Source: Thermoanaerobaculia bacterium
GTDB taxonomy: Bacteria; Acidobacteriota; Thermoanaerobaculia; Multivoradales; Multivoraceae
Assembly: GCA_963664405.1 (NCBI GenBank)
Contig: OY761158.1
Location: 6,020,556 to 6,084,555, forward strand
Length of the DNA stretch: 64,000 nucleotides
Direction of reading: 5' to 3'
The notes below the pieces were generated by a model. That model had not been told where the DNA came from. It was given only the letters and a program-made list of their open reading frames with translations, and made no database searches. The first letter of the stretch is position 1, and every line of letters begins with the position of its first letter. Positions 5,131-43,798 of the stretch are shown in pieces. Position numbers and translations under genes: made by a program.

Positions 5131-5976
5131 AGAGAGCTCGGCCACTCGGTCGTCCTGCTGCCACCCCACCTGACCCACCGCTATGTCGGCGCCCACAAGA
5201 CCGATCGAACCGACACCAAAGGCATGCTCGAGGCGTATCGCAACGAAGACATCCTGCCTGTCCCTGTCAAGTCGCTCGAGCAACAAACGCTCACCACTCT
5301 GCATCGGATGCGCGCGGCCTACATCGGCGATCGTACGGCTCACTGCAACGCTCTACGCGGGCACTTGCGAGAATTCGGACACTTCATCCCTCTAGGACGT
5401 GCGCGCGTCGTGCCGAGGGTCCGAGAGCTGATCGCCGACGCCGAGACGGACATCCCCATGGCATTGCGCCCTCACTTCGCAGCGCAATGCGATCAGATCG
5501 AGCAGTTCCACGAGCGTATCGCGGAGATCGACAACCACATCCAAGCGCTCGCCAAACAGCTCGAAGCCGTGCAGCTGCTGATGACCATTCCTGGCATCGG
5601 GGTCCTGACCGCCACGGCCCTGGTGGCCTGGATCGGAGATGTCTCTCGCTTCAAGAGCGGACGCCATCTTGCCAGCTATCTCGGGCTCACGCCGCGCGAA
5701 CACTCCAGTGGCGCACGACGCTGGCTCGGACGCATCAGCAAACGCGGCGACGGCTATCTGCGCACGCTCCTGATCCACGGGGCCCGCTCCGTGCTGTCGT
5801 GGGCGAAGAGAAAACAACCCCAAGGCCGCCTCCAACAGTGGGCGCTGCACGTCGATACCCGCCGAGGACCCAACAAAGCCGCCGTTGCCCTCGCCAACAA
5901 GTTGGCCCGCATTGTCTGGGCCGTGTGGACCCGTAAGCGCGCCTTCGAGCCCAAGCCGTTGCTCGCTGCTGCCTAA
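5131..5976 (+). pseudogene. IS110-family transposase, C-terminal approximately 282 codons only. The N-terminal RuvC-like part was lost by truncation and the IS256 insertion
   Basis: Identical to residues ELGHSVVLLPP...KPLLAAA of the intact copy at 6464-7501. Confidence 0.85.
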
Positions 5977-6298: not shown

Positions 6299-7825
6299 AG
6301 CCCCAGAAAACGCGCCTTCGGCCCGTTTTCCGGCCCATCCCCGCCTGAGAACTACTCGCCTGTCCGATACTCGGATGATGAAATGGACTCCCTGGCGACT
6401 TCGATCGGCATCTGTGTGCCGCGGGTCGCCCAAACCGAAACTCTAGTACTGGAAGGGAGCCCCATGAAGCATACCGTTATCGGTGTCGACCTGGCCAAGG
6501 ATGTGTTCGAGATCGCCGTGTCGCATGAGCCGGGAAAGGTGGCGGACCGGCATCGAGTCCGAAGAGCTGGCTTTTTGTCTTTCTTCGCACAACGCAAGCC
6601 CACGACGGTGGTCATGGAGGCCTGTGGCTCCGCGCACTACTGGGGCCGGGAAATAGGAGAGCTCGGCCACTCGGTCGTCCTGCTGCCACCCCACCTGACC
6701 CACCGCTATGTCGGCGCCCACAAGACCGATCGAACCGACACCAAAGGCATGCTCGAGGCGTATCGCAACGAAGACATCCTGCCTGTCCCTGTCAAGTCGC
6801 TCGAGCAACAAACGCTCACCACTCTGCATCGGATGCGCGCGGCCTACATCGGCGATCGTACGGCTCACTGCAACGCTCTACGCGGGCACTTGCGAGAATT
6901 CGGACACTTCATCCCTCTAGGACGTGCGCGCGTCGTGCCGAGGGTCCGAGAGCTGATCGCCGACGCCGAGACGGACATCCCCATGGCATTGCGCCCTCAC
7001 TTCGCAGCGCAATGCGATCAGATCGAGCAGTTCCACGAGCGTATCGCGGAGATCGACAACCACATCCAAGCGCTCGCCAAACAGCTCGAAGCCGTGCAGC
7101 TGCTGATGACCATTCCTGGCATCGGGGTCCTGACCGCCACGGCCCTGGTGGCCTGGATCGGAGATGTCTCTCGCTTCAAGAGCGGACGCCATCTTGCCAG
7201 CTATCTCGGGCTCACGCCGCGCGAACACTCCAGTGGCGCACGACGCTGGCTCGGACGCATCAGCAAACGCGGCGACGGCTATCTGCGCACGCTCCTGATC
7301 CACGGGGCCCGCTCCGTGCTGTCGTGGGCGAAGAGAAAACAACCCCAAGGCCGCCTCCAACAGTGGGCGCTGCACGTCGATACCCGCCGAGGACCCAACA
7401 AAGCCGCCGTTGCCCTCGCCAACAAGTTGGCCCGCATTGTCTGGGCCGTGTGGACCCGTAAGCGCGCCTTCGAGCCCAAGCCGTTGCTCGCTGCTGCCTA
7501 AGACGACCGAACGACCACAACCTACTCGTAACCCCCATCCACTCACAGCTCGATCCAAGGACTTTGATGGTTTCCAGTCAGACTGGCGTGAGGGCACAAG
7601 CCGCTAGGAGCGTTGGCCCTCGAGGCCGTTTTCTCGGACGATTCGGCTCCCTCACGCGCACTTTTCCATCATGGCCCGGCGTGCACACATCGTCACGCCA
7701 ATCTGAGGCCGGAGATACGTCTGCTGTCTGACCTACCACTCTCAGCCCGAAGACCGAGAAAACTAGAATCTCTCTATGAGTTGAAATCAACTACTTGACA
7801 CGGGAGTCCAGATACACGCTCCTAG
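6299..7825 (+). mobile_element. IS110-family element copy 2 (apparently intact). The left end abuts the right end of copy 1, giving a head-to-tail tandem
   Basis: Boundaries are inferred from where the copy1/copy2 identity begins and ends. There are no obvious terminal inverted repeats, as is typical of the IS110 family. An outward-facing TTGACA lies 24 bp from the right end. The right end is followed by a 16-bp perfect palindrome. Confidence 0.75.
6464..7501 (+). CDS. IS110-family (DEDD) transposase
   Basis: 345 aa from MKHTVIGVDLAKDVFEIAV. The N-terminus has the typical DEDD/RuvC-like fold and the C-terminal domain is present. An identical second copy lies at 5131-5976. Confidence 0.9.
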   Translation: MKHTVIGVDLAKDVFEIAVSHEPGKVADRHRVRRAGFLSFFAQRKPTTVVMEACGSAHYWGREIGELGHSVVLLPPHLTHRYVGAHKTDRTDTKGMLEAYRNEDILPVPVKSLEQQTLTTLHRMRAAYIGDRTAHCNALRGHLREFGHFIPLGRARVVPRVRELIADAETDIPMALRPHFAAQCDQIEQFHERIAEIDNHIQALAKQLEAVQLLMTIPGIGVLTATALVAWIGDVSRFKSGRHLASYLGLTPREHSSGARRWLGRISKRGDGYLRTLLIHGARSVLSWAKRKQPQGRLQQWALHVDTRRGPNKAAVALANKLARIVWAVWTRKRAFEPKPLLAAA

Positions 7826-26025: not shown

Positions 26026-29000
26026 CTACCGGAAGTCGTGGCTCGGGATCTCGGCCAGGCTCTCGAGAGGCCACAGACGATCGGCTCGGATGGAGAGAGA
26101 GCCGTCCCGCTTTTGTAGTAGCCCCTCGATGATGAGAGCCGACGACCCAACGATGGTCTTGCGGTACTTTTGGAGCAGTTGAGGGCTCACCATCGCCTGC
26201 ACCATTCCGGTCTCGTCTTCTACAGTGACGAAGAGAAGGCCTTTTGCTGTCCCCGGGCGTTGACGCACGATTACCGACCCTGCTGTGCGCACCTGTAGAT
26301 TCGCCGGTAGTTTGTCGAGACTTGCGGCACTGCGGATTCCCTTCTGATCGAGACTCTTTCTCCAGTACTCCATGGGATGTGGACCGACGGTTACATCGGT
26401 TGTGACGAAGTCGGCCACGGTCTCTTCCAGCTTCGACATCTCCGGCAGGGGAGAGGGGCTGCGGTCGGCAGAGTCGTCAAAGAGAGGGCCGGTGGCGCGT
26501 GAGACTCGGGCGACCTGCCACAGGGCCTTTCGCCGGGTCAGCTGCAGTGAAGCCATAGCGCCGGCATGAGCGAGAGCGACCAGCTCGTTCTCTCGCAGCC
26601 CGCAACGCCGGGCGAGATCCTCGGGATTGTCGAAAGGGGCTCGGTGGCGTTCCTTCTCGATCGTCTGTCCCGCTACTTTACGCAGGCCCTTGATAAAGCG
26701 GAGGCCGAGTCGGAGAGCTCCCTTTGCTTGTCGTTGCCTGCCTCCGGACTCTGTGCCGTTGACATTCGGCTCCCAAGTGCATTTCCACCCTGACAGGTTG
26801 ACGTCGATGGGTCGAGCTTCGACACCGCGACGCTGGGCATCCTTGATCAGGGTTGCGGGGTGGTAGAAGCCCATCGGCCAGGCATTGAGTAGCGATACAT
26901 AGAAGGCGGTGGGGTGGTACACCTTGAGGAAGGCGCTGGCGTAGGCGATGAGGGCGAAGCTGGCCGAATGGGATTCGGGAAAGCCGTATAGAGCGAAGGA
27001 AGTGATCTGCTGGACGACCTCGTCTTGGGCTTTGCCGGTAATCCCTCGTTCCGTCATCCCTACTCTCAGTCGATTCTCGATCTTTTCCATCCGCTCCATG
27101 GAGCGTTTGAACCCCATCGCGCGGCGCAACTCTTCGGCTTCACCGCCGGAGAAGCCGGCGGCGACCATGGCGATCTTGAGGATCTGCTCTTGAAAGATGG
27201 GCACGCCGAGAGTGCGTCGGAGAATGGGCTCCAGGCTGGGGTGTGGGTAGCGCACCTCCTCTCGGCCCATGCGGCGTTCGAAATAGGGGTGGGCCATCTT
27301 GCCGACGATGGGTCCGGGGCGGATGATGGCGATCTGGATGACCAGATCGTAGAAGCGGCGGGGATCATTGCGGGGAAGAGAGGCCATCTGAGCACGGCTC
27401 TCGACTTGGAAGAGGCCGACGGTGTCGGCTTGACGGAGAAGGCGGTAGATCTTCGGGTCATCGGCGGGGAGCTGGGCATAATCGACCTTGACCCCTTCGC
27501 ACTGCCGGATCATCGGTACGGCTTCTTCTAGAGCGTTGAGCATGCCGAGGCCGAGAAGATCCACTTTGATGATGCCGAGGTCGGCGCAGTCGTCTTTATC
27601 CCACTGCACGACGACGCGCCCCTCCATCGATGCGGGCTCGAGGGGTACGACTTCGTCGAGACGTCCGGCAGCAATCACCATCCCGCCCGAGTGTTGACCT
27701 AGATGGCGGGGAAGGTTCTGGATTGCGTGCCACATCTCGGAGAAGAGCCGGATGCGAGAATCCCCGGGATCGAAGCCGGCGGATTTGAGCTCTTCACTCA
27801 TGTCCTTCGAGTCGCCGCGATGGATGTCGTAGCGCCAGCTACCGAGTTGTTTGGAGAGGCGGTCGACTTGGGCTTCGGAGTAGCCGAGCACTTTTGAGAC
27901 CTCGCGCGCCGCCATGCGATCGCGATAGGTGATGACGTTGGCGGTCATCGCGGAGCCATGGACGCCGTAGCGCTGATAGACGTACTGAATGACCTTTTCT
28001 CGTGGATCGCCCGAGGGTAGGTCGAGGTCGATATCGGGCCATTCGCCGCGTTCTTCGGAGAGGAAACGCTCGAACAGGAGCTCCATCTTGACCGGATCGA
28101 CCGCGGTGATCGACAGTGCGTAGCAGACTGCGCTGTTGGCCGCTGAGCCACGGCCCTGGGCCATGATCCTGTTCCTCTGGCAGAAACGTACGATGTCCCA
28201 GACAATGAGGAAGTAGCCCTCGAGCTCGAGCTTCTCGATCATGGTGAGCTCTTTCTCGATCTGCGCTTGTGCTTTTGCTGTGAGGGGACGAAAGCGAGCT
28301 CGAGCTCCGTTCCAAGTGATCTGACGCAGATAAGAACCGGGAGTTTCTCCGGCGGGCAGAGGGTAATTGGGGAAGCGGTAGCCGAGGTCGGCGAGGGTGA
28401 AGTCCAGATCGTGGGCGAGCTCCAGGCTGTGCTCCACCGCTTCAGGACAGTCGCGAAAGAGCTCAGCCATAGAAGCGGCTCCCTTGAAATGACGTTGGCG
28501 TTCGAGATGGAGCAGTGCGCCTGCTTCGTCGAGTTTGGTGTGATGGCGGAGACAAGTGAGGATGTCGAAGAGGTTCTTGTCACTTTCCTGGGCATAGCGC
28601 ACGCCATTGGTGGCGAGCAGGGGGAGGCGCAGGCTATGGGCGAGATCGACCAGTGCCTTATTGCGCTCCTCCTCCACACGCAGCGAATGTCGCTGCACTT
28701 CGATCGAGAGTCTGTCGGTGAAGAGGTCGGTGAGTCGTTGGAGAAGGGTTCGTGCGCCGGAGATGCCTCGGTGACGAAGCGCGCTTGCGAGGAGGCCCTC
28801 TTCGCCTCCGGTGATGCAGTAAAGCCCTCCGACGTGATCGTGCAGACTTTCCCAGGTGACTCTGGCTTCGCCCTTGGGGTGGTTGAGGGCAGAGGCGGTG
28901 ATCAGCTTGCATAGATTCTTATAGCCCTCGTCGTTGGCGACGAGGAGAGTGAGGCGGGGCTCTCCGCTCTCGTCTTCGACGACGACCTCCGAGCCCACCA

Positions 29001-29433
29001 AAGCTTTGATGCCCGCCCCTCTCGCTGCCTTGTAGAAGCGGGGAGCGCCGTAAACGCCGTTACGGTCAACAAGTGCAACTGCCGGGATTTCCAGCTCAGC
29101 AGCTCGCGCTACGAGGTCTTCGGGGAGGGAGGCGCCGCCGAGGAAAGAGAAGGCGGAGACACAGTGAAGCTCGGCATAGCGTTGTCGAGTCGCTTTAGGA
29201 AGGCGATAACTCCTTTGGCGCAGCTTTTCCTTCCGTGCCCCGGGGGATAGGTAGTTCTTGCGATCGAGCCACGTACCGATGTCCTGGTCTGGCGCCTTGG
29301 CGAGGACCGGCGGATTGAGCACGCTTTCGTTGGTAGGAGGTGCAATAGGTGTCGGCGGCTTGCGGTACATGAGGGGGAACGAGGATAGGCGTAAATAAGG
29401 CGTAATGTCAACGTCGAGCTCACGCCCAAGCAC
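26026..29433 (-). CDS. dnaE2: Error-prone DNA polymerase DnaE2 (ImuC-like). The true start may be internal to the ORF
   Basis: PHP domain (YAELHCVSAFSFLGGAS) and pol III alpha catalytic core. Length about 1100 aa, typical of DnaE2. No imuA/imuB is present upstream: an IS66 element sits there instead. Confidence 0.85.
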   Translation of the reverse strand: MLGRELDVDITPYLRLSSFPLMYRKPPTPIAPPTNESVLNPPVLAKAPDQDIGTWLDRKNYLSPGARKEKLRQRSYRLPKATRQRYAELHCVSAFSFLGGASLPEDLVARAAELEIPAVALVDRNGVYGAPRFYKAARGAGIKALVGSEVVVEDESGEPRLTLLVANDEGYKNLCKLITASALNHPKGEARVTWESLHDHVGGLYCITGGEEGLLASALRHRGISGARTLLQRLTDLFTDRLSIEVQRHSLRVEEERNKALVDLAHSLRLPLLATNGVRYAQESDKNLFDILTCLRHHTKLDEAGALLHLERQRHFKGAASMAELFRDCPEAVEHSLELAHDLDFTLADLGYRFPNYPLPAGETPGSYLRQITWNGARARFRPLTAKAQAQIEKELTMIEKLELEGYFLIVWDIVRFCQRNRIMAQGRGSAANSAVCYALSITAVDPVKMELLFERFLSEERGEWPDIDLDLPSGDPREKVIQYVYQRYGVHGSAMTANVITYRDRMAAREVSKVLGYSEAQVDRLSKQLGSWRYDIHRGDSKDMSEELKSAGFDPGDSRIRLFSEMWHAIQNLPRHLGQHSGGMVIAAGRLDEVVPLEPASMEGRVVVQWDKDDCADLGIIKVDLLGLGMLNALEEAVPMIRQCEGVKVDYAQLPADDPKIYRLLRQADTVGLFQVESRAQMASLPRNDPRRFYDLVIQIAIIRPGPIVGKMAHPYFERRMGREEVRYPHPSLEPILRRTLGVPIFQEQILKIAMVAAGFSGGEAEELRRAMGFKRSMERMEKIENRLRVGMTERGITGKAQDEVVQQITSFALYGFPESHSASFALIAYASAFLKVYHPTAFYVSLLNAWPMGFYHPATLIKDAQRRGVEARPIDVNLSGWKCTWEPNVNGTESGGRQRQAKGALRLGLRFIKGLRKVAGQTIEKERHRAPFDNPEDLARRCGLRENELVALAHAGAMASLQLTRRKALWQVARVSRATGPLFDDSADRSPSPLPEMSKLEETVADFVTTDVTVGPHPMEYWRKSLDQKGIRSAASLDKLPANLQVRTAGSVIVRQRPGTAKGLLFVTVEDETGMVQAMVSPQLLQKYRKTIVGSSALIIEGLLQKRDGSLSIRADRLWPLESLAEIPSHDFR

Positions 29434-29587: not shown

Positions 29588-31084
29588 TCAGATCCGATCG
29601 GGGAAGGTGGCGGTGCCGGGATTTTGAAGCGCCCGTTGTGCAGCGACGCGAAGGTAGTGATCTGGCGCGACGCCATGCAGCCGCGCAGTCTCGCAGAGCG
29701 AGTAGAGAATGGCTCCGACCTCGCATCCTCGGCGAGATCGAAACTGTAGATAGTTCTTTCGGCCGACGACGGGTCCTCGCAGCGCGTTCTCGGCACGGTT
29801 GTTGTCCAGCGGTAGCCGTGCATCCTCGAGGAAGCGAGTCAGCCCCTCCCAGCGAGCCAGGATGTACTTGACCGCCTTGATGAAGTCGCTGCGCGGAAGC
29901 CCCGTTTGCGACAGCGCCCAAGCCTTGATCGCCGCAATCACCTTCGATGAGCGCTTCACTCGAGCCTCCGCCCGGCGCAGCAGAGTGTCCGCCGGTTCAA
30001 GATCCAAGGCGTCGATCTCGCGCTCGATCTCGTAGAGCTCTCCGATCAACTTCAAGATCTGGGCGCACTCCCGCGGCCGATGCTTCTGCGCATCGCGGAA
30101 TTTGCGCAAACTGTGAGCCCAACAATTCGCCAGACGCAGGGGCCCGGCCCGGGAAAGCTGCTCGTACACTGGGTAGCCGTCCGCGATCACGATTCCGTCG
30201 TAAGCGCCGAGGATCTCCTCGCCCGCAGCGAAGCTCTTGCGCCCCAGCGTGTACCAGGCATGCTGATTCGTGCTGAGCACCCAGAGAGTTTCTCGTCTCG
30301 AGTGCTTGCCCTGCGTCAGCAGGAAGCCCGTCTCGTCGGCATGGAGGAAGTCAGATCCCAGGATCTGCTCCTTGAGCGCTGCATAGGTCGGTCGCAGCAC
30401 CTCGGCTAGGGCTTGCTCCTGGTCCCACAGCGTCTGCTTCGTCACTCGTAGACCGCTGCGGCTGAGCTCCTTGACCTGGCGATGCAGAGGCATGTGATCG
30501 ACGATCTTCGACGTCGCCACCGAGACCGCAAACTCCAGCGAGTACCGACCGCCGGGCACCAGCCGCGGATGCGGATTCGGCGCCGTCCCAACTGCGCTGT
30601 TGCAAGCGCAACGGTACTTCTGGCGCCGATGCACCAGACGCACCACGCGCTTCATCTCGATCGTGATCTCTTCGGAGTCTTGTGTCTCGACGCCCAAGGG
30701 CTGAAGCGTCGGGTCTCCACAGGCCGGACACGTCCGCTCGCCCTCTCCCAGCACGTGCTCCAGGACGACCACCGGTAGGTCCGGTTGCGGCGTCGGCCCG
30801 TGGCCGCGCTGCTTGCGCGGTCGCGCTTCCGAGTCGGGGAGCTCCCGGGCCTGGCGCTGGATCTCGAGCTTGCCAAGACCCAGAAGCAACTCGAGCTCGG
30901 CCTGATCGGCGTCCTCGCCGCGCAGGCTCGCATTCTCTCGCTTCAGCTGGCGGACCAGGTCCAGCAGACGGTCGTTTTCCGTGCTCAGAAGCGAATAGTG
31001 CGCGAGTACGACGTCGAGAGAGGCGATCGTTTCGGGCACCTGCATCGGATGCCCCTTTCTCTCATGCCGGTGAGCGAATCGCAA
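29588..31084 (-). CDS. IS66-family transposase TnpC
   Basis: Zinc-finger CPACG...CxC region and DDE core. 498 aa. Confidence 0.9.
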   Translation of the reverse strand: MRFAHRHERKGHPMQVPETIASLDVVLAHYSLLSTENDRLLDLVRQLKRENASLRGEDADQAELELLLGLGKLEIQRQARELPDSEARPRKQRGHGPTPQPDLPVVVLEHVLGEGERTCPACGDPTLQPLGVETQDSEEITIEMKRVVRLVHRRQKYRCACNSAVGTAPNPHPRLVPGGRYSLEFAVSVATSKIVDHMPLHRQVKELSRSGLRVTKQTLWDQEQALAEVLRPTYAALKEQILGSDFLHADETGFLLTQGKHSRRETLWVLSTNQHAWYTLGRKSFAAGEEILGAYDGIVIADGYPVYEQLSRAGPLRLANCWAHSLRKFRDAQKHRPRECAQILKLIGELYEIEREIDALDLEPADTLLRRAEARVKRSSKVIAAIKAWALSQTGLPRSDFIKAVKYILARWEGLTRFLEDARLPLDNNRAENALRGPVVGRKNYLQFRSRRGCEVGAILYSLCETARLHGVAPDHYLRVAAQRALQNPGTATFPDRI

Positions 31085-33396: not shown

Positions 33397-34569
33397 TCAC
33401 TCGAGCTCGTAGCTCTCGTCCAGCCCCGGCGAATAGATCGGCGGATTGCCGCGCCAGTGGCCCTGCAGAAAGCGGACCGATGACTCCAGGGTGAGATCCC
33501 CCCGCCTTCGCAGTGCCTCGACGCAGGCGTCGTAGGCGGGGCCGTCACCGCCGAGCTTGACCATCACCGGCGGGCGCGTCGCCTGCCAGTGCTCGTAACT
33601 GACGTAGCGCACCATCATGTAGGCCTCGTCGTAGCTGGGGTCTTCGGCGGGCAGGTCGCTTCCACCGGTCGTCGGCGTATTCGCTTCCAGACCCTCGCTC
33701 TCACCCGGCAGCGGATAGACCCTCAGCCATTGACCGACGATGCGCGCTCCCATCTTCTCGAAGTAGGGCCACACTCCGTCTTCGCTCAGGCTGCGGACCT
33801 GTGCAAAGGTCCCCTTCTTGATCCTGAAACGCCGCAGGGTGACGATTTCTTGGCCCGGCTTGTAGCGACCGTGGCGCACCGGATGCACCGAGGACTCTCC
33901 CTCGACCTTTCGATAGCTCTCGTCGAGAGGGGGAAAGTAGTAGGGCACATTGGGCGCCATCGCTCCCTCCAGGTAGATCGGCCCGTCGGAGCCAGTGGTC
34001 ACACTGCGTCGTATGGCCGCGGCCTCGCGCATCGCATCCCAGTCTGGGCCGTTGCCACCAAGCTCGGCACCACGTCGCGTCGCAGCCCAGTGGTTGAAAC
34101 TGCGGTATCGCGCTATCCGATAGCCCTCGTCGTCACCGGCCGGCTTGCCACCCTGCGGGTAGACCACTTGCCACTGACCGACGTTGCGATTTCCGAGCTT
34201 CTCGTAAAACGGCCACACTCCGTCTTGCGACGCTCTCAGGTAGGTGTCGTGCGTTCCCGGCTTCAGTTGCTGGTGACGAAGAACCAGAAACTCGGTCCCA
34301 GCCTGGGATGTGCCATGGCGAACCGGGACGGGCTCCTGCGCTGTGACGTCGGAGGACATGGTTGCGAACCCGAGAAGAACACAGATCCACCCACGAACTA
34401 GTCTTTTATCGCGCGACACTCTCACCTCCCCAGCGTTTGACCGAAGAATGTTACCTTGCCGGGGAAAACGACGCGACTTACGCGGCTCGTGAGCCGGCCC
34501 GTACCCTAGCTTCCCATCGATCGATTGGAGCCCAGAGGCCGGGACAGGGCTCGAGCACGGTTGCCGCAC
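33397..34569 (-). CDS. Secreted protein with two NIPSNAP-like domains
   Basis: Internal duplication (HGTSQAGTEFLVL...DGVWPFYEKLGNRNVGQWQVVYP and HGRYKPGQEIVTL...DGVWPYFEKMGARIVGQWLRVYP). The signal-like segment is LVRGWICVLLGFATMSSDVTA. Confidence 0.55.
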   Translation of the reverse strand: MRQPCSSPVPASGLQSIDGKLGYGPAHEPRKSRRFPRQGNILRSNAGEVRVSRDKRLVRGWICVLLGFATMSSDVTAQEPVPVRHGTSQAGTEFLVLRHQQLKPGTHDTYLRASQDGVWPFYEKLGNRNVGQWQVVYPQGGKPAGDDEGYRIARYRSFNHWAATRRGAELGGNGPDWDAMREAAAIRRSVTTGSDGPIYLEGAMAPNVPYYFPPLDESYRKVEGESSVHPVRHGRYKPGQEIVTLRRFRIKKGTFAQVRSLSEDGVWPYFEKMGARIVGQWLRVYPLPGESEGLEANTPTTGGSDLPAEDPSYDEAYMMVRYVSYEHWQATRPPVMVKLGGDGPAYDACVEALRRRGDLTLESSVRFLQGHWRGNPPIYSPGLDESYELE

Positions 34570-35021
34570 CTCCGCGGAGGCGCGCCAGGAGGAAGGGAAT
34601 CACTCGCATCTCGCATCCCGGGATGCCGATCACGGCGGCCAGCAGGTGGCAGAGGCCCATATGGAGATGCACCGTGAGGGTCAAGAGAAGGGCGTAGGTC
34701 GCCACTGTGGGGTCCCCAGAAGGCTCCGCTCTGTAGCCACTGAATCCCGGATAGGCCGAACCCCACGACCAGCGCGACCCCGGCCGGGGCGTTGCCCACC
34801 GGGAGCACCCGATGCAGGCCGAGCCGAATATTGAACGAAACCAGGTAGAACGCAAGGGCAACGAAGACCCAGAGACCCGTGCTCCAAGTGGCTTCTCTCA
34901 GCCCAGAGAAGTGGGCGATGATGGAGACGACGCCCTGGATCTGGAACAAACCGACGAGAAGCTTGCCGATGCGTCCAACAATCGATGCCGGAGGCATGCC
35001 CTCGGCCGTCACCGTCGCCAC
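34506..35021 (-). CDS. Hypothetical polytopic membrane protein, probably frameshifted around 34712-34740. A downstream frame, 34478-34861, continues the hydrophobic sequence
   Basis: Hydrophobic in the first ~100 codons of one frame, then Pro/Arg-rich nonsense, while the overlapping frame becomes hydrophobic. The family was not established. Confidence 0.3.
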   Translation of the reverse strand: MATVTAEGMPPASIVGRIGKLLVGLFQIQGVVSIIAHFSGLREATWSTGLWVFVALAFYLVSFNIRLGLHRVLPVGNAPAGVALVVGFGLSGIQWLQSGAFWGPHSGDLRPSLDPHGASPYGPLPPAGRRDRHPGMRDASDSLPPGAPPRRCGNRARALSRPLGSNRSMGS

Positions 35022-35031
35022 ACCACATCCC

Positions 35032-36114
35032 CTAGCGCGCTGCCACCCTGACTTCGAAGTTAGCGCTGAAGCTCGCCAGCACCTCTTCGCGGGACTTCTG
35101 GCCGACGAGCTTCTCGAGCAGGCGTCCTTGGGCGTCGAGGAAGAAGTAAACCGGCACGAGATGACTCTCTACCAGGTCCGCCAGACTCGGATCGTTGAAC
35201 CCCCAGATCTCGAACCTCGGCTCGAGCTCGGGCAGCCAGGCGTTCAGATCCTCGATGGATCCGCTGTTGATGTAGACACCGACCACGTTGATGCCCCTCG
35301 GACCGTAGGAGTCGGCAAGATGGTTGAGGATCGGTAGCGAGTCGAGAGAGTGACGGCAGTGAACGGCCAGGAAGACGAGGAGCGTCTCGGAGCCTCGAAG
35401 GCCGCTGAGACTGACTTCCTCGCCGGCCACGCTGTGGGCGGCGAACTCCGGCAGAATGAAGTTCTCGAAACGCTGGCCATCCTCGGCCTTCTCGGTCACA
35501 TACATGTCGAGGATCTCTCCGGTGGCTCCCGAGAGGTCGCCGTAGATGGAGCACGCTTCATACTGTGCACAGCGGCTACCTGCGAGCAGATCGCCGAGGG
35601 CGCCCATCTCTTCCAGTTTGTCCATGACCGCATTGGTGAGCACGGCGCGATGATCCTCTGCGACCCTGACTGCGGTCGCTTCGAACACTTCGCTGTCTTC
35701 GAAGGCCGGGCTGCCGGTCTGAATAATGCGCTTGGCCATCCAATCCGCCACCCGATCGAGCTCCTCTGAGGAGAGATCGCCTCTCGAGGTCGCCGGGGTG
35801 CCCTCGCCCTGGAGTTGGGTTGGGTAGCCCACCTTGTTCACCACATCGACCAAGTGCTGCGCGCTGACAGTCTTGGCCTGGATTCGCGCGATCGCTTCGT
35901 TCTTCGTGCGATCCACCGAGATCACCTCGACCCCGTCGACTCCCGCCAAGGCTCCCTTGACTTGAAGCTGACACATGGAGCTCGACATTCCCCGCACCTC
36001 GAGCACTACGGTCTCTAGATCCGCCTCCGCCGCGGACCAGATTGGAATTAGCGCGAGCAAGGTTGCCAGGAGTAGCAGTCGACCAAGAAATCTGTTGCTG
36101 GTAAATAGCGTCAT
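35032..36114 (-). CDS. Exported fusion of an HMA-like domain (motif GMSSSMC, i.e. SxxC) and a TlpA/redoxin-like thioredoxin-fold domain (active site CRHS, i.e. CxxS)
   Basis: Signal peptide MTLFTSNRFLGRLLLLATLLALIPIWSAAEA. HMA pattern VVLEVRGMSSSMCQLQVKGALAGVDGVEVISVD. Redoxin pattern LLVFLAVHCRHS. Confidence 0.6.
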   Translation of the reverse strand: MTLFTSNRFLGRLLLLATLLALIPIWSAAEADLETVVLEVRGMSSSMCQLQVKGALAGVDGVEVISVDRTKNEAIARIQAKTVSAQHLVDVVNKVGYPTQLQGEGTPATSRGDLSSEELDRVADWMAKRIIQTGSPAFEDSEVFEATAVRVAEDHRAVLTNAVMDKLEEMGALGDLLAGSRCAQYEACSIYGDLSGATGEILDMYVTEKAEDGQRFENFILPEFAAHSVAGEEVSLSGLRGSETLLVFLAVHCRHSLDSLPILNHLADSYGPRGINVVGVYINSGSIEDLNAWLPELEPRFEIWGFNDPSLADLVESHLVPVYFFLDAQGRLLEKLVGQKSREEVLASFSANFEVRVAAR

Positions 36115-36127
36115 CGTTCTCTCCTTG

Positions 36128-36442
36128 CTAGCTTTGCTTGAGAAGGGTCGACAGGACCTTGGTGACTCGGTCCAGTCGCTCGTCAGCATCACCGGTCATG
36201 CAGGTCTGGACGCACGACTTGAGCTCGTGATCGATCAGCACAGCACTGAACTTATTGAGCGCCGCCTTCAGCGCGGCGACCTGGAGCAGGATCTCGTCAG
36301 CGCACCTCTCCTCCTCGACCATGCGCTGCACCGCTCCAACGTGTCCCTGGAGCCGTGCCAAGCGATTCGAGAGCGCCTTCTTGGAGGCGGCGTCGAGGTA
36401 GCCGGTCCCTGCTTTAGCCGCGGCCAGCTCTGCTGTTGTCAT
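36128..36442 (-). CDS. csoR: CsoR/RcnR-family metal-sensing transcriptional repressor
   Basis: 104 aa. Conserved metal ligands are present (Cys in EERCADE, His in IDHELKSC, Cys in CVQTCMTGDA), and the overall DUF156 pattern is there. Confidence 0.85.
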   Translation of the reverse strand: MTTAELAAAKAGTGYLDAASKKALSNRLARLQGHVGAVQRMVEEERCADEILLQVAALKAALNKFSAVLIDHELKSCVQTCMTGDADERLDRVTKVLSTLLKQS

Positions 36443-36469: not shown

Positions 36470-37273
36470 TCAAGGCTGGTCTAGGTGGTCGAGCTCGCGG
36501 GCAAGCTCTTTCGCCTCGATGAAGCCTACGTGGCGAAAGAGCTCTTCGCCCTTGGGCGCCAGGACGACGATTGTGGGCAGGCCGAGTGCTTCGTAGTAGT
36601 TGGCCGCGACAGGATGTTCGTCGGTGTCGATTCGAAGGAACACATTTCGTCCCAGGAACTCTTGAATCCCCACCTCGGAGATGGTTCGCTCTTCGAGCAC
36701 TTTGCACGGGGCACACCACTCGGCCCAGAAGTCGAGAAAAAGGAGCTTTCCTTCGCGCTCTGCGGTGGCCAGCGCGACGGATATCGGCGGCGGAACCGGG
36801 CCGCTTCTCTGTTTCGCCTGCGCACTGTCTCCAGACGGAACGATCTCGGGCTCGAAGTCGAGCTCCGTGATTGCTTCCAGCATCTCAGTGGGTGCCACCT
36901 CGCCCGGGTCGTATCCCACCGTGAAGAGATCGGTGTCCAGATCGACTCGGACTGCTTCGACTCCTGCGAGCCCTTCCAGGGCCGCTTCCACGCTGTCGGG
37001 TCAGCCCATTCACGTGGCGCCGCTGCGACTCTTCATCATGCCCCGCACGACGATGCGAACGGTCTCGCTCGAATCCTCTGGGCTCCCGCCGCGCCGGATG
37101 GGAATGTCGAGGACGATTCTGCCGCCGAGATCCTCCTGGGCGGCGGCCGTTTCCCGGTGGTCGACTGCGAGGAGTAGGAAGGCCACGACCGTGGCCGCGA
37201 CTAAGGGCTTGTAGCGATACTGCACGGATCGGCTCGTCTTCTTTTCCGCTATCTCCAAGAAGGCTCCCCACAT
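36470..37273 (-). CDS. Candidate selenoprotein: a membrane-anchored HMA-domain/thioredoxin fusion. The HMA metal-binding motif is T-U-M-G-U, with two in-frame TGA codons at plus-strand 37010-37012 and 37001-37003. The thioredoxin active site is WCAPC
   Basis: ORFs 37010-37273 (TM helix plus ...VRIVVRGMMKSRSGAT) and 36470-36991 (PDSVEAALEGLAGVEAVRVDL...WCAPC) are in the same frame, separated only by TGA-ATG-GGC-TGA. Aligning to the HMA consensus GMTCxxCxxxVExALxxxxGV puts both TGAs exactly on the two Cys. A SECIS-like bulged stem-loop follows. Confidence 0.55.
36966..36985 (-). promoter_or_regulatory. Candidate bacterial SECIS-like stem-loop: mRNA GCGGCCC-UGGAA-GGGC(U)CGC, a 7-bp stem with a bulged U and a GG-containing loop. 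It starts 15 nt after the second UGA
   Basis: Folded by eye from the minus-strand transcript. The spacing and the bulged-U plus G-rich-loop features resemble the fdhF-type SECIS. Confidence 0.35.
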
Positions 37274-37275
37274 AA

Positions 37276-37294
37276 TATCCCCTACGGGGGGATA
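37276..37294. promoter_or_regulatory. CsoR-type operator: GC-tract inverted repeat TATCCCC-TAC-GGGGGGATA, flanked by A/T, directly upstream of the operon's first gene
   Basis: It matches the ATACCC(n)GGGTAT architecture of known CsoR boxes. It lies at -3 to -21 of the ATG and overlaps the Shine-Dalgarno sequence (AGGGGA). Confidence 0.6.
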
Positions 37295-37382
37295 CGGATG
37301 AAGGTTACAGACGGATTGGGAATCCCGCCCCTCCTCTTCTACAATTACGCCTCATGGAGCTCAGCCCCAGCCCGATCACCCC

Positions 37383-37781
37383 ATGAGCCGACCCCTCGAT
37401 GCAGGCGCCGCAGCCGAGGTCGCCCGGCAACATCGTATGGCGGACAGCGTCGGGGTGCCCGTCGCGCGCCGCCACATCTTTCTCTGCGCCGATCAGACCA
37501 AGCCGCAGTGTTGCGAGAAAGAAAGGGGCCTCGAGGCTTGGAGCTATCTCAAAAGGCGTCTCCGTGAGCTCGGCCTCTCCGAGGCCGGTGGCGTACTGCG
37601 AACGAAAGCGAACTGCCTGCGCATCTGCGAAGGCGGGCCGGTCGCTGTCGTCTACCCGGAAGGCACCTGGTATCGGCGATGCGATCCGCCCGTGCTCGAG
37701 CGCATCATCCAGGAGCATCTCCTCGGCGGCCGAGTGGTCGAGGACTACCTGATCGTAGATCGCCCCCTCGACCCCTCTTAG
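37383..37781 (+). CDS. Thioredoxin-like [2Fe-2S] ferredoxin-family protein
   Basis: Cys pattern [15 protein letters not shown]...[22 protein letters not shown] is typical of Trx-like Fd. Confidence 0.6.
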
Positions 37782-37806: not shown

Positions 37807-40614
37807 ATGAGCGACGAAGGCGCGGTCCGGGTCGTCAAGGCGACGACGCACAACCTCAAGGCTATCGACTGCCGCGTACCCCACCGCAAGGTTACGGTAG
37901 TGACCGGGCCTTCGGGCGCGGGCAAGTCGTCACTGGCCTTCGACACTATCTACGCGGAGGCACAGCGGCGCTTCATCCAGTCGATGTCGACCTACGCTCG
38001 CCAGTTTCTCGAGCAGATGGAACGCCCACCGGTCGAGGAGATCGAAGGCATCCTGCCCGCGGTAGCCCTCGTTGCAAAAAACTCGGTGAAGAACGCCCGC
38101 TCGACGGTCGGCACCATCAGCGAGGTCTACGATGTGCTTCGGCTTGTCTTTGCCCACCTCGGCAAGGTCGAGTGCTCCCAGGGCCATGGCCCGATGTCTT
38201 CCTCGACCGCAGGGGAGGCGGCCGAGAGTCTGATCTCCACTGCCGACGACGTGCAGCTGACCGTTTTGGCGCCCCTCCCCCGACCCGCAGAGGGCGCCGA
38301 TCGCATGCTCCAGGAGCTCATCCGTCAAGGCTTCTTTCGTATCCTGAGAGACGGGGCGACCGAGCGTTGGGAGGCCGGGGCCGATTGGCCAGAGGCGCTC
38401 GATCCCCTGCCGCTGGTTCTCGGCCGTTTTCGCGCCCACATCCAGGCCCGTTCGCGCCTCACTGCGGCGATCGAGGAGGCCTACCGTCTCACTGGCGGCC
38501 AGGTAGAGATCCAGGGAAGCAGCCTCCTGCACTTCGGGCGACGACTCACCTGCACAACCTGCGGCGAGACCTCGGCGCGGCCCCAACCCGCTCTCTTTTC
38601 ATTCAACTCTCCGCTCGGTGCCTGCCCGGCCTGTCAGGGTTTCGGTCGCATCATCGGCATCGATCGCGCGCGCATTATTCCCGATCCGCGAAAAACTCTG
38701 CGGCAGAAACCGATCGCCCCCTGGAACAGCCCGGCCTATGAGAAGCACTACGGCGGTCTGTGGAAGGCGTGCAAGGAGCACGGCGTGCCGCTGAATCGAC
38801 CCTTCGAGGAGTTGAGCGACGAGGCTCTCGATCTGGTCTGGCGAGGTCGCGGCTTCGTCAATATCGAGCGCTTCTTTGCCTGGCTCGAACGGCGTAACTA
38901 CAAAGTGCATGTCCGCGTGCTCTTGTCTCGCTACCGAGCCTACGAAGAGTGTCGTCGCTGCCAAGGCCGCCGACTACGGCCCGAGTCGCTGAGAGTGCTC
39001 CTCAAGGGCCGAAACGTTTCGGAGCTGGTCCAAAAGAGTGTCGAGGACCTGCGATCCTGGCTCTCCGATCAGAGTTGGGAGGGGTGGGAACGCGAGCTCG
39101 CCGAGCATCTCCTTGGCGAGCTCCAAGGGCGCCTCGAAACTCTCCATCGAGTAGGTCTCGACTATCTCGCCCTCGATCGGCAGGCCCGCACCCTTTCCGG
39201 AGGTGAGACTCAGCGTATCCAGCTAGCCTCGGCGCTCGGTACCGGCCTGACCAACACCCTCTACGTGCTCGACGAGCCCACTATCGGCCTCCACCCCCGA
39301 GACTCGCAGCGCCTGGTCGATCTGCTCAAGAACCTGGCGAGCCAAGGGAACACGGTCCTGGTGGTAGAGCACGACCGTACGATCATCGAAGGAGCCGATC
39401 ACGTCATCGACCTGGGGCCCCGAGCTGGCGAGCACGGGGGGGAGGTGGTGGCCGAGGGCTCTTTCGATGAGGTGATCGAGAGCGAGACCTCTTTGACGGC
39501 GGCTTACTTCCGAAAAGGCTTGCACCAATACTCCGCAGAAAACGGCGAGGCCGGATCCGCGTCAGCGCTCCTAGAGGGCTCTAGACGTGTCGAGGAGCTC
39601 CCGAAGATCGGCATCCGCGGTGCTCGCGAGAACAATCTGCGGAACTTCGACGTGGAATTCCCCTTGGGTTGTCTGGTCGTCGTGACTGGAGTCTCGGGCT
39701 CGGGTAAGTCCACCCTCGTGCAACAGGTTCTCCACGGAACTTTTCAGCGCTCCCAAGGCGTTGTCGATGTGGAGCCGGGGCGCTGCGACGAGTTGGTGGG
39801 AGTCGAGGCCCTTGCCGACATCGTGCTCGTGGATCAGCGACCTCTCGGTCGCTCGAGCCGTTCAAACCCAGTCACCTACATCAAGGCCTACGACGACATT
39901 CGAAAGCTCTTCGCTGCTACTGCCAGGGCGAAGCGCGAAGGGATTACCGCAGCGCATTTCTCGTTCAACCTCGATCGGGGGCGTTGTCCCGAATGTGAGG
40001 GCACCGGCTTGCAGGAAGTCGACATGCAGTTCATGGCTTCGGTGCTAGTGACTTGCGACCGTTGTCAGGGCCGTCGCTTCCGACCGGAGATTCTCAGCAT
40101 CATCTTTGATGGTCGCAATATTGACGAAGTTCTAGAGCTCACGGTCGAGCAAGGGCTCGACTTCTTCGCCGGCCACACCCGGCTGTGTCGAAGGCTTCAG
40201 TCGCTTCAGGATGTCGGTCTCGGCTACCTCCGTCTAGGCCAGCAGACAGCGACTCTCTCCGGCGGAGAGGCCCAGCGCCTGAAGCTCGCAACCTTCTTGC
40301 AGGCGCCGGGCAGGCGGTCGCGCTCAGAACCCCGTCTTTTCATCTTCGACGAGCCTACGACCGGACTCCATATGTGTGACATCGATCTTCTTCATCAGAC
40401 ACTGCGCCGCCTGCTCGAGGCGGGGCACGGAGTGGTGGTCGTCGAGCACAGCCTCGACCTCATCGCGCGTGCCGACTGGATCGTCGACCTTGGTCCCGGC
40501 GGCGGCGAGCACGGCGGCCACCTTCTCTTTTCGGGACCGATGATGGCGTTTCTCGAAACTGCGGACGGCCCGACGGCATCCGAGCTGCGACGTGCCCTCG
40601 ATCCTGCCTCGTGA
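37807..40614 (+). CDS. uvrA: Excinuclease ABC subunit A (UvrA-family double ABC ATPase)
   Basis: Two Walker A motifs (GPSGAGKSS, GVSGSGKST), ABC signatures, zinc-finger Cys pairs, 935 aa. Confidence 0.85.
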   Translation: MSDEGAVRVVKATTHNLKAIDCRVPHRKVTVVTGPSGAGKSSLAFDTIYAEAQRRFIQSMSTYARQFLEQMERPPVEEIEGILPAVALVAKNSVKNARSTVGTISEVYDVLRLVFAHLGKVECSQGHGPMSSSTAGEAAESLISTADDVQLTVLAPLPRPAEGADRMLQELIRQGFFRILRDGATERWEAGADWPEALDPLPLVLGRFRAHIQARSRLTAAIEEAYRLTGGQVEIQGSSLLHFGRRLTCTTCGETSARPQPALFSFNSPLGACPACQGFGRIIGIDRARIIPDPRKTLRQKPIAPWNSPAYEKHYGGLWKACKEHGVPLNRPFEELSDEALDLVWRGRGFVNIERFFAWLERRNYKVHVRVLLSRYRAYEECRRCQGRRLRPESLRVLLKGRNVSELVQKSVEDLRSWLSDQSWEGWERELAEHLLGELQGRLETLHRVGLDYLALDRQARTLSGGETQRIQLASALGTGLTNTLYVLDEPTIGLHPRDSQRLVDLLKNLASQGNTVLVVEHDRTIIEGADHVIDLGPRAGEHGGEVVAEGSFDEVIESETSLTAAYFRKGLHQYSAENGEAGSASALLEGSRRVEELPKIGIRGARENNLRNFDVEFPLGCLVVVTGVSGSGKSTLVQQVLHGTFQRSQGVVDVEPGRCDELVGVEALADIVLVDQRPLGRSSRSNPVTYIKAYDDIRKLFAATARAKREGITAAHFSFNLDRGRCPECEGTGLQEVDMQFMASVLVTCDRCQGRRFRPEILSIIFDGRNIDEVLELTVEQGLDFFAGHTRLCRRLQSLQDVGLGYLRLGQQTATLSGGEAQRLKLATFLQAPGRRSRSEPRLFIFDEPTTGLHMCDIDLLHQTLRRLLEAGHGVVVVEHSLDLIARADWIVDLGPGGGEHGGHLLFSGPMMAFLETADGPTASELRRALDPAS

Positions 40615-40674: not shown

Positions 40675-42946
<2,272 letters not shown>

Positions 42947-42952
42947 TCGCAT

Positions 42953-43798
42953 ATGGACGAAACTTCCTCGAGTCTGGTCTTCGGCGGGCACCAGAAGTTC
43001 TTCACCCACGCCTCCGAGGTGCTCGGGTGCGACATGAACTTCGCGGTCTTCCTACCCCCCGCGGCGCAGAACCTCGAGTGCCCGGTGCTCTACTGGCTCA
43101 GTGGCTTGACCTGCACCGAGCAGAATTTCGTTACCAAGGCCGGTGCGCAGAGGTATGCCGCCGAGCAGGGGCTCATCATCGTCGTTCCGGATACCAGCCC
43201 ACGTGGCAGTCAGGTTCCCGACATCGACGACCCCTACCTGGGCTGTGGCGCCAGCTTCTACATCAATGCCACTCAGCCTCCCTGGTCTGACTACTACCTC
43301 ATGCACGAGTACTTGGTGAAGGAGCTCACAGGTCTGGTTGAAGGCAGCTTTCCCGTCGCAAAGGACCGCAAGGGAGCGATGCGGGGAATCAGCGGGCATT
43401 CGATGGGCGGCCATGCCGCGATCATGATTGCGCTGCGCAACCCGGGTCGCTATCGCTCGTTGTCCGCTTTTGCTCCGATTTCATCTCCCTCGAATAGCCC
43501 GTGGGGGGAGGCCGCCTACTTGCACTACCTGGGGGAGGATCGCGAGAGCTGGAAGAGCTGGGACGCTTCGTTTCTGGTCAAGGATGCGACCGAGAAGTTA
43601 CCCATCCTCATCGACCAGGGCGAGGAAGACCCCTTTCTGCTCGACCAACTCAAGCCCACCGTCTTCCAGAAGGCCTGCGCTACCGTAGATCACCCTCTAC
43701 GGCTGCGAATACACGAGGGCTATGACCACAGCTACTTCTTTGTCGCCAGCTTCATCAAAGAGCACATCGAATACCACGCCGCGGCGCTGGCCGGGTAG
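42953..43798 (+). CDS. fghA: S-formylglutathione hydrolase (esterase D)
   Basis: GHSMGGHAA nucleophile elbow and full-length FGH colinearity. Confidence 0.95.
   Translation: MDETSSSLVFGGHQKFFTHASEVLGCDMNFAVFLPPAAQNLECPVLYWLSGLTCTEQNFVTKAGAQRYAAEQGLIIVVPDTSPRGSQVPDIDDPYLGCGASFYINATQPPWSDYYLMHEYLVKELTGLVEGSFPVAKDRKGAMRGISGHSMGGHAAIMIALRNPGRYRSLSAFAPISSPSNSPWGEAAYLHYLGEDRESWKSWDASFLVKDATEKLPILIDQGEEDPFLLDQLKPTVFQKACATVDHPLRLRIHEGYDHSYFFVASFIKEHIEYHAAALAG

Follow-up and report, generated by a model that had tools for sequence, protein, structure and literature searches.

A predicted exported HMA-thioredoxin fusion family, mainly from Acidobacteriota, with two conserved in-frame UGA codons at its metal-ligand positions, most likely read as selenocysteine

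We analyzed a 64-kb window of DNA (64,000 nucleotides) from the Thermoanaerobaculia bacterium assembly GCA_963664405.1. The window spans positions 6,020,556 to 6,084,555 of contig OY761158.1, and all coordinates below are positions within it. It contains a minus-strand stretch, from 37273 down to 36470, that gene callers split in two at a pair of in-frame UGA codons. We conclude with good confidence that this stretch is one real gene. Both UGAs would be recoded with the help of a selenocysteine insertion sequence (SECIS), most likely as selenocysteine (Sec). The predicted product joins an HMA domain to a thioredoxin domain. A double-Sec HMA site is already known. What is new is the presumably exported HMA-thioredoxin fusion family, which is real, widespread, and systematically misannotated.

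An initial annotation had described two minus-strand open reading frames (ORFs) in the same frame that are parted only by UGA-AUG-GGC-UGA. The window sequence bears this out. The frame reads ...VRIVVRGMMKSRSGAT-TGA-ATG-GGC-TGA-PDSVEAALEGLAGVEAVRVDL...WCAPC..., with no frameshift and no further stop. A longer reading of the same frame is ...TVRIVVRGMMKSRSGAT-U-MG-U-PDSVEAALEGLAGVEAVRVDL...FWAEWCAPCK.... The predicted read-through peptide that spans both recoded sites is SGAT-U-MG-U-PDSVEAALEGLAGVEAVR. The coordinates of the gene, its parts, and its neighbors are collected in Table 1.

For the domain searches, the two stops were replaced by Cys. Pfam HMA (PF00403) matched residues 84 to 138 over profile positions 5 to 59, with 34.9 bits against a cutoff of 24.8. 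The register of this match puts the two UGAs on both ligand positions of GMTCxxC, where the initial annotation had also placed them. The Pfam thioredoxin match covered residues 175 to 262 (PF00085, 42.9 bits; cutoff, 23.5). The best NCBIfam match of the thioredoxin part was the C-terminal part of DsbD. Among the residues that do not vary across 17 read-through orthologs are K81, G85, U88, U91, W186, C187, C190, and P233, the presumed cis-Pro. Because of this invariance, we take the redox and metal motifs both to be under selection.

The structure was examined in an AlphaFold2 model of a homolog, P0120 (mean predicted local distance difference test score [pLDDT], 84.6). Because P0120 carries W in place of Sec, the metal loop of this model (pLDDT of about 58) has no meaningful geometry. 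The model predicts a complete beta-alpha-beta-beta-alpha-beta HMA fold. In it, the recoded sites come after strand beta-1, at the start of helix alpha-1. A low-confidence extended loop corresponds to a K-S-x-S-G insert. The HMA fold is predicted to be followed by a disordered linker of about 20 residues and then by a thioredoxin fold. For the latter, the best Foldseek matches were to DsbD-gamma (1vrs_D and 2fwe), with a root mean square deviation of 1.8 Å, 28 to 30% identity, and TM-scores, normalized to target length, of 0.72 to 0.77. The upstream ORF encodes beta-1, and the downstream ORF encodes the rest. An HMA fold thus requires that both UGAs be decoded, in line with the earlier claim that neither ORF alone gives a complete one.

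The N termini of orthologs, inspected by eye, are classical signal peptides ending in AxA-Q (for example, MTRKLTAMLLTAVFFAGAVFAQ). The window protein has a longer N terminus than its orthologs. It contains a single hydrophobic segment followed by AAAQ. The protein would be exported by means of an N-terminal signal peptide or anchor.

DNA was read for 26 related loci with 32 to 95% identity, found in GTDB, JGI, ENA, and Logan assemblies. Their sources include six GTDB genomes labelled Blastocatellia or Acidobacteriota, nine JGI contigs, and nine ENA/Logan contigs. Two of the six GTDB genomes bear the name Heliomicrobium, which is probably a mislabel. All 26 loci carry TGA-NNN-NNN-TGA in frame, with coding conservation on both sides and no other lesions. 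No locus has a Cys codon at either site. The base after the second UGA is always C, and the next codon encodes Pro, or Leu in one locus (L091). The motif around the UGAs is G-[FM]-x-K-S-[KR]-S-G-A-[TVI]-U-[MFL]-[GA]-U-P. One locus (L171) deviates from it and reads NFMKTDGGPT-U-MA-U-P.

These loci bear on whether the gene is a decayed pseudogene, that is, an HMA-thioredoxin gene hit by two independent nonsense mutations. In a single sequence, two stops in one domain do resemble lesions, and the callers split the gene. However, the same two codons are TGA in 26 of 26 loci down to 32% identity, and nothing else in these loci is broken. The protein on both sides, the hairpin described below, and the upstream palindrome are all conserved. 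The divergence of the orthologs excludes the possibility that they are copies of one recent dead element. The initial annotation had argued against a pseudogene from the placement of the two stops, and we likewise consider decay extremely unlikely.

Searches of protein databases returned mostly truncated forms. A read-through query against 5.8 billion proteins gave 15 close relatives with 92% to 33% identity. All of them were 156 to 199 residues long, and all started just past the motif. When 1.84 billion cluster representatives were searched with a profile, 174 matched below 1e-30. About 80 of the best 150 representatives were ORFs cut at the same place. Among the representatives inspected, the only entry that retained its N terminus was P0120 (224 amino acids), which reads GVT-W-LS-W-P. 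The W at both sites comes from a gene caller that read TGA as Trp, presumably by applying a code that treats TGA as sense. The family is uncurated, large, and mainly from Acidobacteriota, with at least about 100 sequence clusters.

The P0120 translation would suit a genetic code that assigns UGA to Trp or Gly. The TGAs might also be sequencing or assembly errors. Against the former, TGA is the ordinary stop used most often in the window, where it ends 16 of the 30 family-matched genes, this one included. Against the latter, two independent megabase assemblies carry the window's protein fragment unchanged, and the 26 loci, which come from different projects, have TGA at both of these codons. 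We assign a negligible probability to both.

A further alternative is that no recoding takes place and that two products are made. These would be an 87-residue membrane peptide that stops at the first UGA and a thioredoxin protein reinitiated at GTG 36991. This GTG lies 9 nt past the second UGA, and every pipeline annotates the downstream ORF alone. However, the internal start is not conserved, and the starts called in orthologs differ (for example, MEAAL, MDLEND, MRLDRDEF, and VKKIEM). The downstream protein would be without a signal peptide and without HMA strand beta-1. In-frame conservation also covers the two codons that separate the UGAs (x-x) and the one that follows them (P). We consider two separate products very unlikely. 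The conservation of the TGAs, the independent assemblies, the use of TGA as a stop, and the unconserved downstream start are thus our grounds for excluding pseudogene decay, sequencing error, an alternative code, and two separately translated ORFs.

The initial annotation had pointed to a bulged-U hairpin that begins 15 nt past the second UGA as a possible recoding signal. We examined it in an ungapped alignment (A3) of the 26 sequences that begins at the first UGA. The hairpin is formed by columns 28 to 34 with columns 40 to 46. The inner five base pairs form in all 26 sequences. Pair 33-41 is U-A in 13 sequences, C-G in 12, and U-G in 1. At this pair, a synonymous change from GCU to GCC is matched by a change from GAG to GGG, which replaces Glu with Gly. 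Pair 29-45 switches between A-U and G-C. The lower stem contains the bulged U in the window's clade. Overall pairing was 90.7%, compared with 20 to 58% when the 3' arm was slid along the alignment. None of 500 column shuffles matched the observed pairing or covariation score. The hairpin therefore shows compensatory changes that are specific to its register. Synonymous variation is also lower across the hairpin codons than further downstream.

The hairpin has a UGGAA loop (N1-G-G-N-N2, with U:A) on a stem of 7 to 8 bp. The loop starts 22 nt past the second UGA and 31 nt past the first. The minimum free energy (MFE) is -10.0 to -13.2 kcal/mol in 26 of 26 loci. The published bacterial SECIS model has a stem of 4 to 16 bp, a UGA-to-loop distance of 16 to 37 nt, and an MFE of -7.5 kcal/mol or lower (PMC13188914). 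The loop, stem, spacing, and MFE of the hairpin fit this model. Distances of 22 and 31 nt both fall inside the 16- to 37-nt range, so one hairpin is in range of both UGAs, as first annotated. From this we infer that both UGAs share one SECIS. The same arrangement was proposed independently in a 2026 study of hydrogenases with UxxU motifs, which also reported such enzymes from Acidobacteriota (PMC13582414). At gathering thresholds, the hairpin matched nothing in Rfam, which says nothing against it.

A second hairpin, GACCG-GAGA-CGGUC, was considered at A3 columns 11 to 24, where it holds the GA of the second UGA. It is present only in Blastocatellia-like loci (L001 to L008 and L084 to L091), is missing in the window's clade, and was not recovered by RNAalifold. 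It was dropped.

Several points weigh against our reading. A single 91-nt sequence folds no better than shuffled sequences (z = -0.51). The covariation comes mostly from two pairs and few lineages. A conserved A-L-E-[GE]-L peptide is encoded where the hairpin lies, so nucleotide conservation is partly driven by the protein. In Escherichia coli, the distance from UGA to SECIS must stay within narrow limits. Homolog and profile searches, with the best 150 representatives inspected, found no Cys-form ortholog of the same architecture. The classical Sec/Cys pairing is seen only when the family is compared with profiles of the HMA superfamily, in that the Cys ligands of Pfam HMA and of CopZ/MerP align to the UGAs. 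The genes selA, selB, and selD and tRNA-Sec were not found in the 64-kb window or in 15 ortholog loci. The window is a small part of a 6.78-Mb contig, and this result is uninformative rather than negative. Finally, the function, metal, export, and CsoR control proposed below are read from sequence and context.

Related searches were also made. An HMA-only query with U replaced by C returned no homologs, and it was so short that the word index probably failed. Rfam and ARAGORN gave no matches over the whole window, and neither the window nor the loci contain any tRNA. No Sec machinery was found among 30 of the larger window genes scanned against NCBIfam. When the window was searched for further coding regions interrupted by one TGA, the only candidates were gene junctions and antisense frames.

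The alternative closest to double Sec insertion keeps the same gene and the same hairpin. One or both UGAs would be read as Cys by a SelB-delivered, SECIS-dependent tRNA-ReC/selC*, a noncanonical tRNA-Cys. The mature site would then be CxxC, UxxC, or CxxU. Genes like tRNA-ReC occur in about 56% of UxxU-hydrogenase genomes compared with about 2% of other Sec-type genomes, and either UGA may then be Cys (PMC13582414). The sequence evidence here does not tell Sec from Cys. However, a Cys product would predict some changes from TGA to TGC or TGT, and none was seen among more than 100 diverged clusters. This argues mildly against tRNA-ReC, and we consider decoding as Cys unlikely. Sec at both positions is the reading that we prefer.

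Table 1. Positions of the read-through gene, its parts, and the neighboring operon features in the 64-kb window
Feature	Coordinates	Strand	Remarks
Read-through gene	36470..37273	minus	267 codons including two UGA; ATG at 37273, TGA stop at 36472-36470; the two TGAs are the sole in-frame stops
Hydrophobic segment, putative export signal or signal anchor	37163..37207	minus	Residues ~23-37, LVAATVVAFLLLAV, then AAAQ; by eye from the sequence
HMA domain	36854..37063	minus	Beta-1 and extended loop G-M-M-K-S-R-S-G-A-T upstream of the UGAs, remainder downstream
First in-frame UGA	37012..37010	minus	Residue 88, first HMA metal-ligand position; TGA in 26/26 loci
Second in-frame UGA	37003..37001	minus	Residue 91, second metal-ligand position; TGA in 26/26 loci
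SECIS-like hairpin GCGGCCC-UGGAA-GGGC(u)CGC	36966..36985	minus	Apical loop 36978-36974; starts 15 nt past second UGA
Thioredoxin-fold domain, DsbD-gamma-like	36488..36781	minus	Pfam Thioredoxin, Thioredoxin_7, Thioredoxin_2; NCBIfam; Foldseek
Thioredoxin active site C-A-P-C	36704..36715	minus	Residues 187-190, preceded by W186
G-tract pseudopalindrome TATCCCC-CCGTA-GGGGATA, candidate CsoR operator	37276..37294	minus	TATCCCCCCGTAGGGGATA; 2 nt upstream of the ATG
csoR-family repressor	36128..36442	minus	27 nt downstream of the selenoprotein gene; PF02583, 73 bits
Second exported HMA protein (G-M-S-S-S-M-C, SxxC) with AhpC/TSA, TlpA-like domain (H-C-R-H-S, CxxS)	35032..36117	minus	Pfam/NCBIfam; present in L163
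Conserved 171-aa ORF	34506..35021	minus	No Pfam match; kept in L163, partly in L165

The initial annotation had called an HMA domain with two Sec residues unusual. This was overstated. A UxxU HMA family is already catalogued as NF041115 ("UxxU_metal_bind" metal-binding [seleno]protein). It is listed as a "putative mercuric reductase" with UxxU and two Sec, and its first report is traced to work on the Delta-1 symbiont of Olavius algarvensis (PMC13188914). NF041115 is likewise an HMA domain with both ligand Cys as Sec, and it was the best-scoring HMA-type NCBIfam model for all 17 members tested. It differs in that it is a single domain of about 74 residues, whereas the family here is a 230- to 290-residue exported fusion (267 in the window) with a beta-1/alpha-1 loop about 6 residues longer (K-S-x-S-G). 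Membership in NF041115 was rejected. The window protein scored 42.5 bits against a cutoff of 95, the best E value among the 17 members was 1e-13, and the family is three to four times longer with another architecture.

MerP and CopZ (TIGR02052 and NF033795) share the beta-alpha-beta-beta-alpha-beta fold, with a ligand pair at the junction of the loop and helix 1. MerP is likewise periplasmic and is encoded beside merT, as is the ortholog in L003. Unlike the proteins here, MerP and CopZ have Cys ligands, a short GMTCxxC loop, and no thioredoxin domain. Assignment to either was rejected (TIGR02052, 23.6 bits against 92.55; NF033795, 40.8 bits against 91). DsbD-gamma, TlpA, ResA, DsbH, and Thioredoxin_7 share the thioredoxin fold, the WCxxC site, the cis-Pro, and action outside the cytoplasm. 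Compared with DsbD, the window protein is without the membrane (beta) and alpha domains. The full DsbD model NF001419 was also rejected, since it matched the gamma region only (59.5 bits against 330).

Two UGAs 9 nt apart with one SECIS-like hairpin that has G in loop position 1 or 2 are also found in UxxU group 4 [NiFeSe] hydrogenases (PMC13582414) and in Prx-like thiol:disulfide oxidoreductases and FmdB-family proteins (PMC13188914). Those families have unrelated folds and abundant Cys forms, whereas none was found for the family here. No NCBIfam model covers the family, and it was not found in the 2022 and 2026 selenoprotein catalogues at keyword level.

In the mechanism that we propose, SelB with Sec-tRNA-Sec would bind the hairpin and decode the two UGAs, 9 nt apart, in turn. 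The exported product would carry an HMA domain with U-M-G-U in place of the canonical Cys pair, preceded by the family-specific loop G-x-x-K-S-x-S-G. A flexible linker would connect it to a DsbD-gamma-like thioredoxin domain with WCAPC. The diselenolate U-x-x-U may bind a soft metal outside the cytoplasm. This would be Cu(I) in the window's clade and possibly Hg(II), as merT contexts suggest, or other metals elsewhere. The tethered thioredoxin domain could keep U-x-x-U reduced and metal binding in an oxidizing compartment, or return it to that state, and may pass electrons to or from it. The cotranscribed CsoR probably represses at the palindrome abutting the start codon, and Cu(I) would release it. 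Taken alone, this functional model, drawn from sequence, stands at roughly an even chance. A broader proposal is that a widespread extracytoplasmic family exists only in double-Sec form. Its UxxU diselenol/diselenide HMA domain, serviced by its own thioredoxin domain, would use selenium to trap Cu(I)/Hg(II) or to act as a redox switch for them. A single SECIS would direct the insertion of both Sec residues. We put this forward tentatively, as a possibility that is somewhat doubtful as a whole.

The initial annotation had placed the gene in a CsoR-controlled operon. The components that it named, csoR and an HMA(SxxC)-TlpA(CxxS) gene downstream and a palindrome upstream, are all present. The part about control would apply only in the high-GC clade of the window, in which the palindrome is conserved and some loci have an adjacent csoR. 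It does not extend to the Blastocatellia-like orthologs, which lie in merT, P1B-ATPase, or unrelated neighborhoods. The window CsoR contains C47, H72, and C76 with a spacing of 25/4, which we take to be that of the Cu(I) C-H-C triad of CsoR. csoR adjoins the gene in four loci and follows it in the window, L083, L163, and L165.

The palindrome is also found upstream of orthologs in L163, L164, L166, and L168 and twice in L169, giving six clade loci with the window. In some of these, csoR is not adjacent. CsoR operators of Streptomyces lividans are G-tract pseudopalindromes, TACCCCCTAGGGGTA, with a TAC-N9-GTA dyad (PMC3902906). The dyad of the window palindrome is ATC/GAT, not TAC/GTA. The palindrome is a plausible CsoR operator by its sequence. 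The operon shares with the CsoR copper operons of Bacillus, Streptomyces, and Mycobacterium (copZA) a CsoR with the C-H-C pattern, a G-tract pseudopalindrome at the promoter or start, and HMA cargo. It differs from them in having no P1B-ATPase, in the ATC/GAT dyad, and in a cargo of exported redox/HMA fusions.

The second HMA fusion protein of the operon is apparently internally deleted in L165, a 77%-identical relative. There, the gene after csoR (L165:1063-1392) matches only residues 104 to 143 and 326 to 361 of the HMA-AhpC protein. This protein is therefore no obligatory partner of the selenoprotein. The 171-aa ORF is possibly the last gene of the operon, to judge from its position. It might serve the operon as a membrane partner and is without CcdA/DsbD-like cysteines.

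Orthologs have other neighbors. A MerT-family (PF02411) gene and a zf_CopZ protein lie directly upstream in L003 (8277-9720), L086, and L087. In L004 (7486-12696), a P1B-type ATPase without an N-terminal HMA domain is encoded upstream. A CopY/BlaI-like repressor, an M56/M48 peptidase, and a YtkA-like protein are encoded downstream. A CxxC CopZ lies upstream of the ortholog in L170. The common theme of these contexts appears to be soft-metal handling at or beyond the membrane. The next gene after the ortholog in L164 (2171-2512, plus strand) is a second split gene. Read through, it would encode an exported HMA protein, MSRHRYF...TFTVTGMT-U-GG-C-AASVRAAVGKLEGVVKV..., which would be a UxxC selenoprotein of MerP/CopZ-like type. 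The 71 nt downstream fold no better than shuffled sequences (z = +1.18).

At least about 100 sequence clusters of this family sit in databases as truncated "thioredoxin family proteins," because pipelines cut the gene or read UGA as Trp. The motif G-[FM]-x-K-S-[KR]-S-G-A-x-U-x-x-U-P can serve curators in building a model. If our reading is true, an exported double-Sec metal-binding/redox fusion is added to the bacterial selenoproteome. Selenium use in Acidobacteriota would then extend to extracytoplasmic copper or mercury handling. To our knowledge, nearly all selenoprotein families have Cys forms. The finding of none here would argue that selenium is chemically indispensable in this family. 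The gene, whose two UGAs lie 9 nt apart and are followed by one 20-nt hairpin, would also be a compact natural substrate for studying whether a single SECIS directs two successive insertions and how SelB re-engages it.

Other genes in the window were recorded. Divergent from the operon is a thioredoxin-like [2Fe-2S] ferredoxin (37383-37781, plus strand) with a weak NCBIfam match of 44.5 bits against a cutoff of 150. Beyond it is UvrA (37807-40614, plus strand), and the same arrangement is found in L163. The best named relatives of this UvrA belong to Acidobacteriota/Thermoanaerobaculia, with 62 to 71% identity, which agrees with an Acidobacteriota source related to Thermoanaerobaculia. Just past UvrA (40675-43798, plus strand) is a cluster for glutathione-dependent formaldehyde detoxification. 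It contains a cyanobacterial-type gshA, S-(hydroxymethyl)glutathione dehydrogenase, and S-formylglutathione hydrolase. The window also contains insertion sequences, namely an IS256 transposase (3705-4904, minus strand), IS110 (5053-5976 and 6383-7501, plus strand), and IS66 (29588-31084, minus strand). The two IS110 copies have matching 226-aa antisense ORFs, which suggests that they are repeated copies. Between the IS66 element and the remainder of the window is a DnaE2-type error-prone polymerase (26026-29433, minus strand; NF004225, 1267 bits). Further NCBIfam matches in the window were to amidases and acyl-CoA enzymes.

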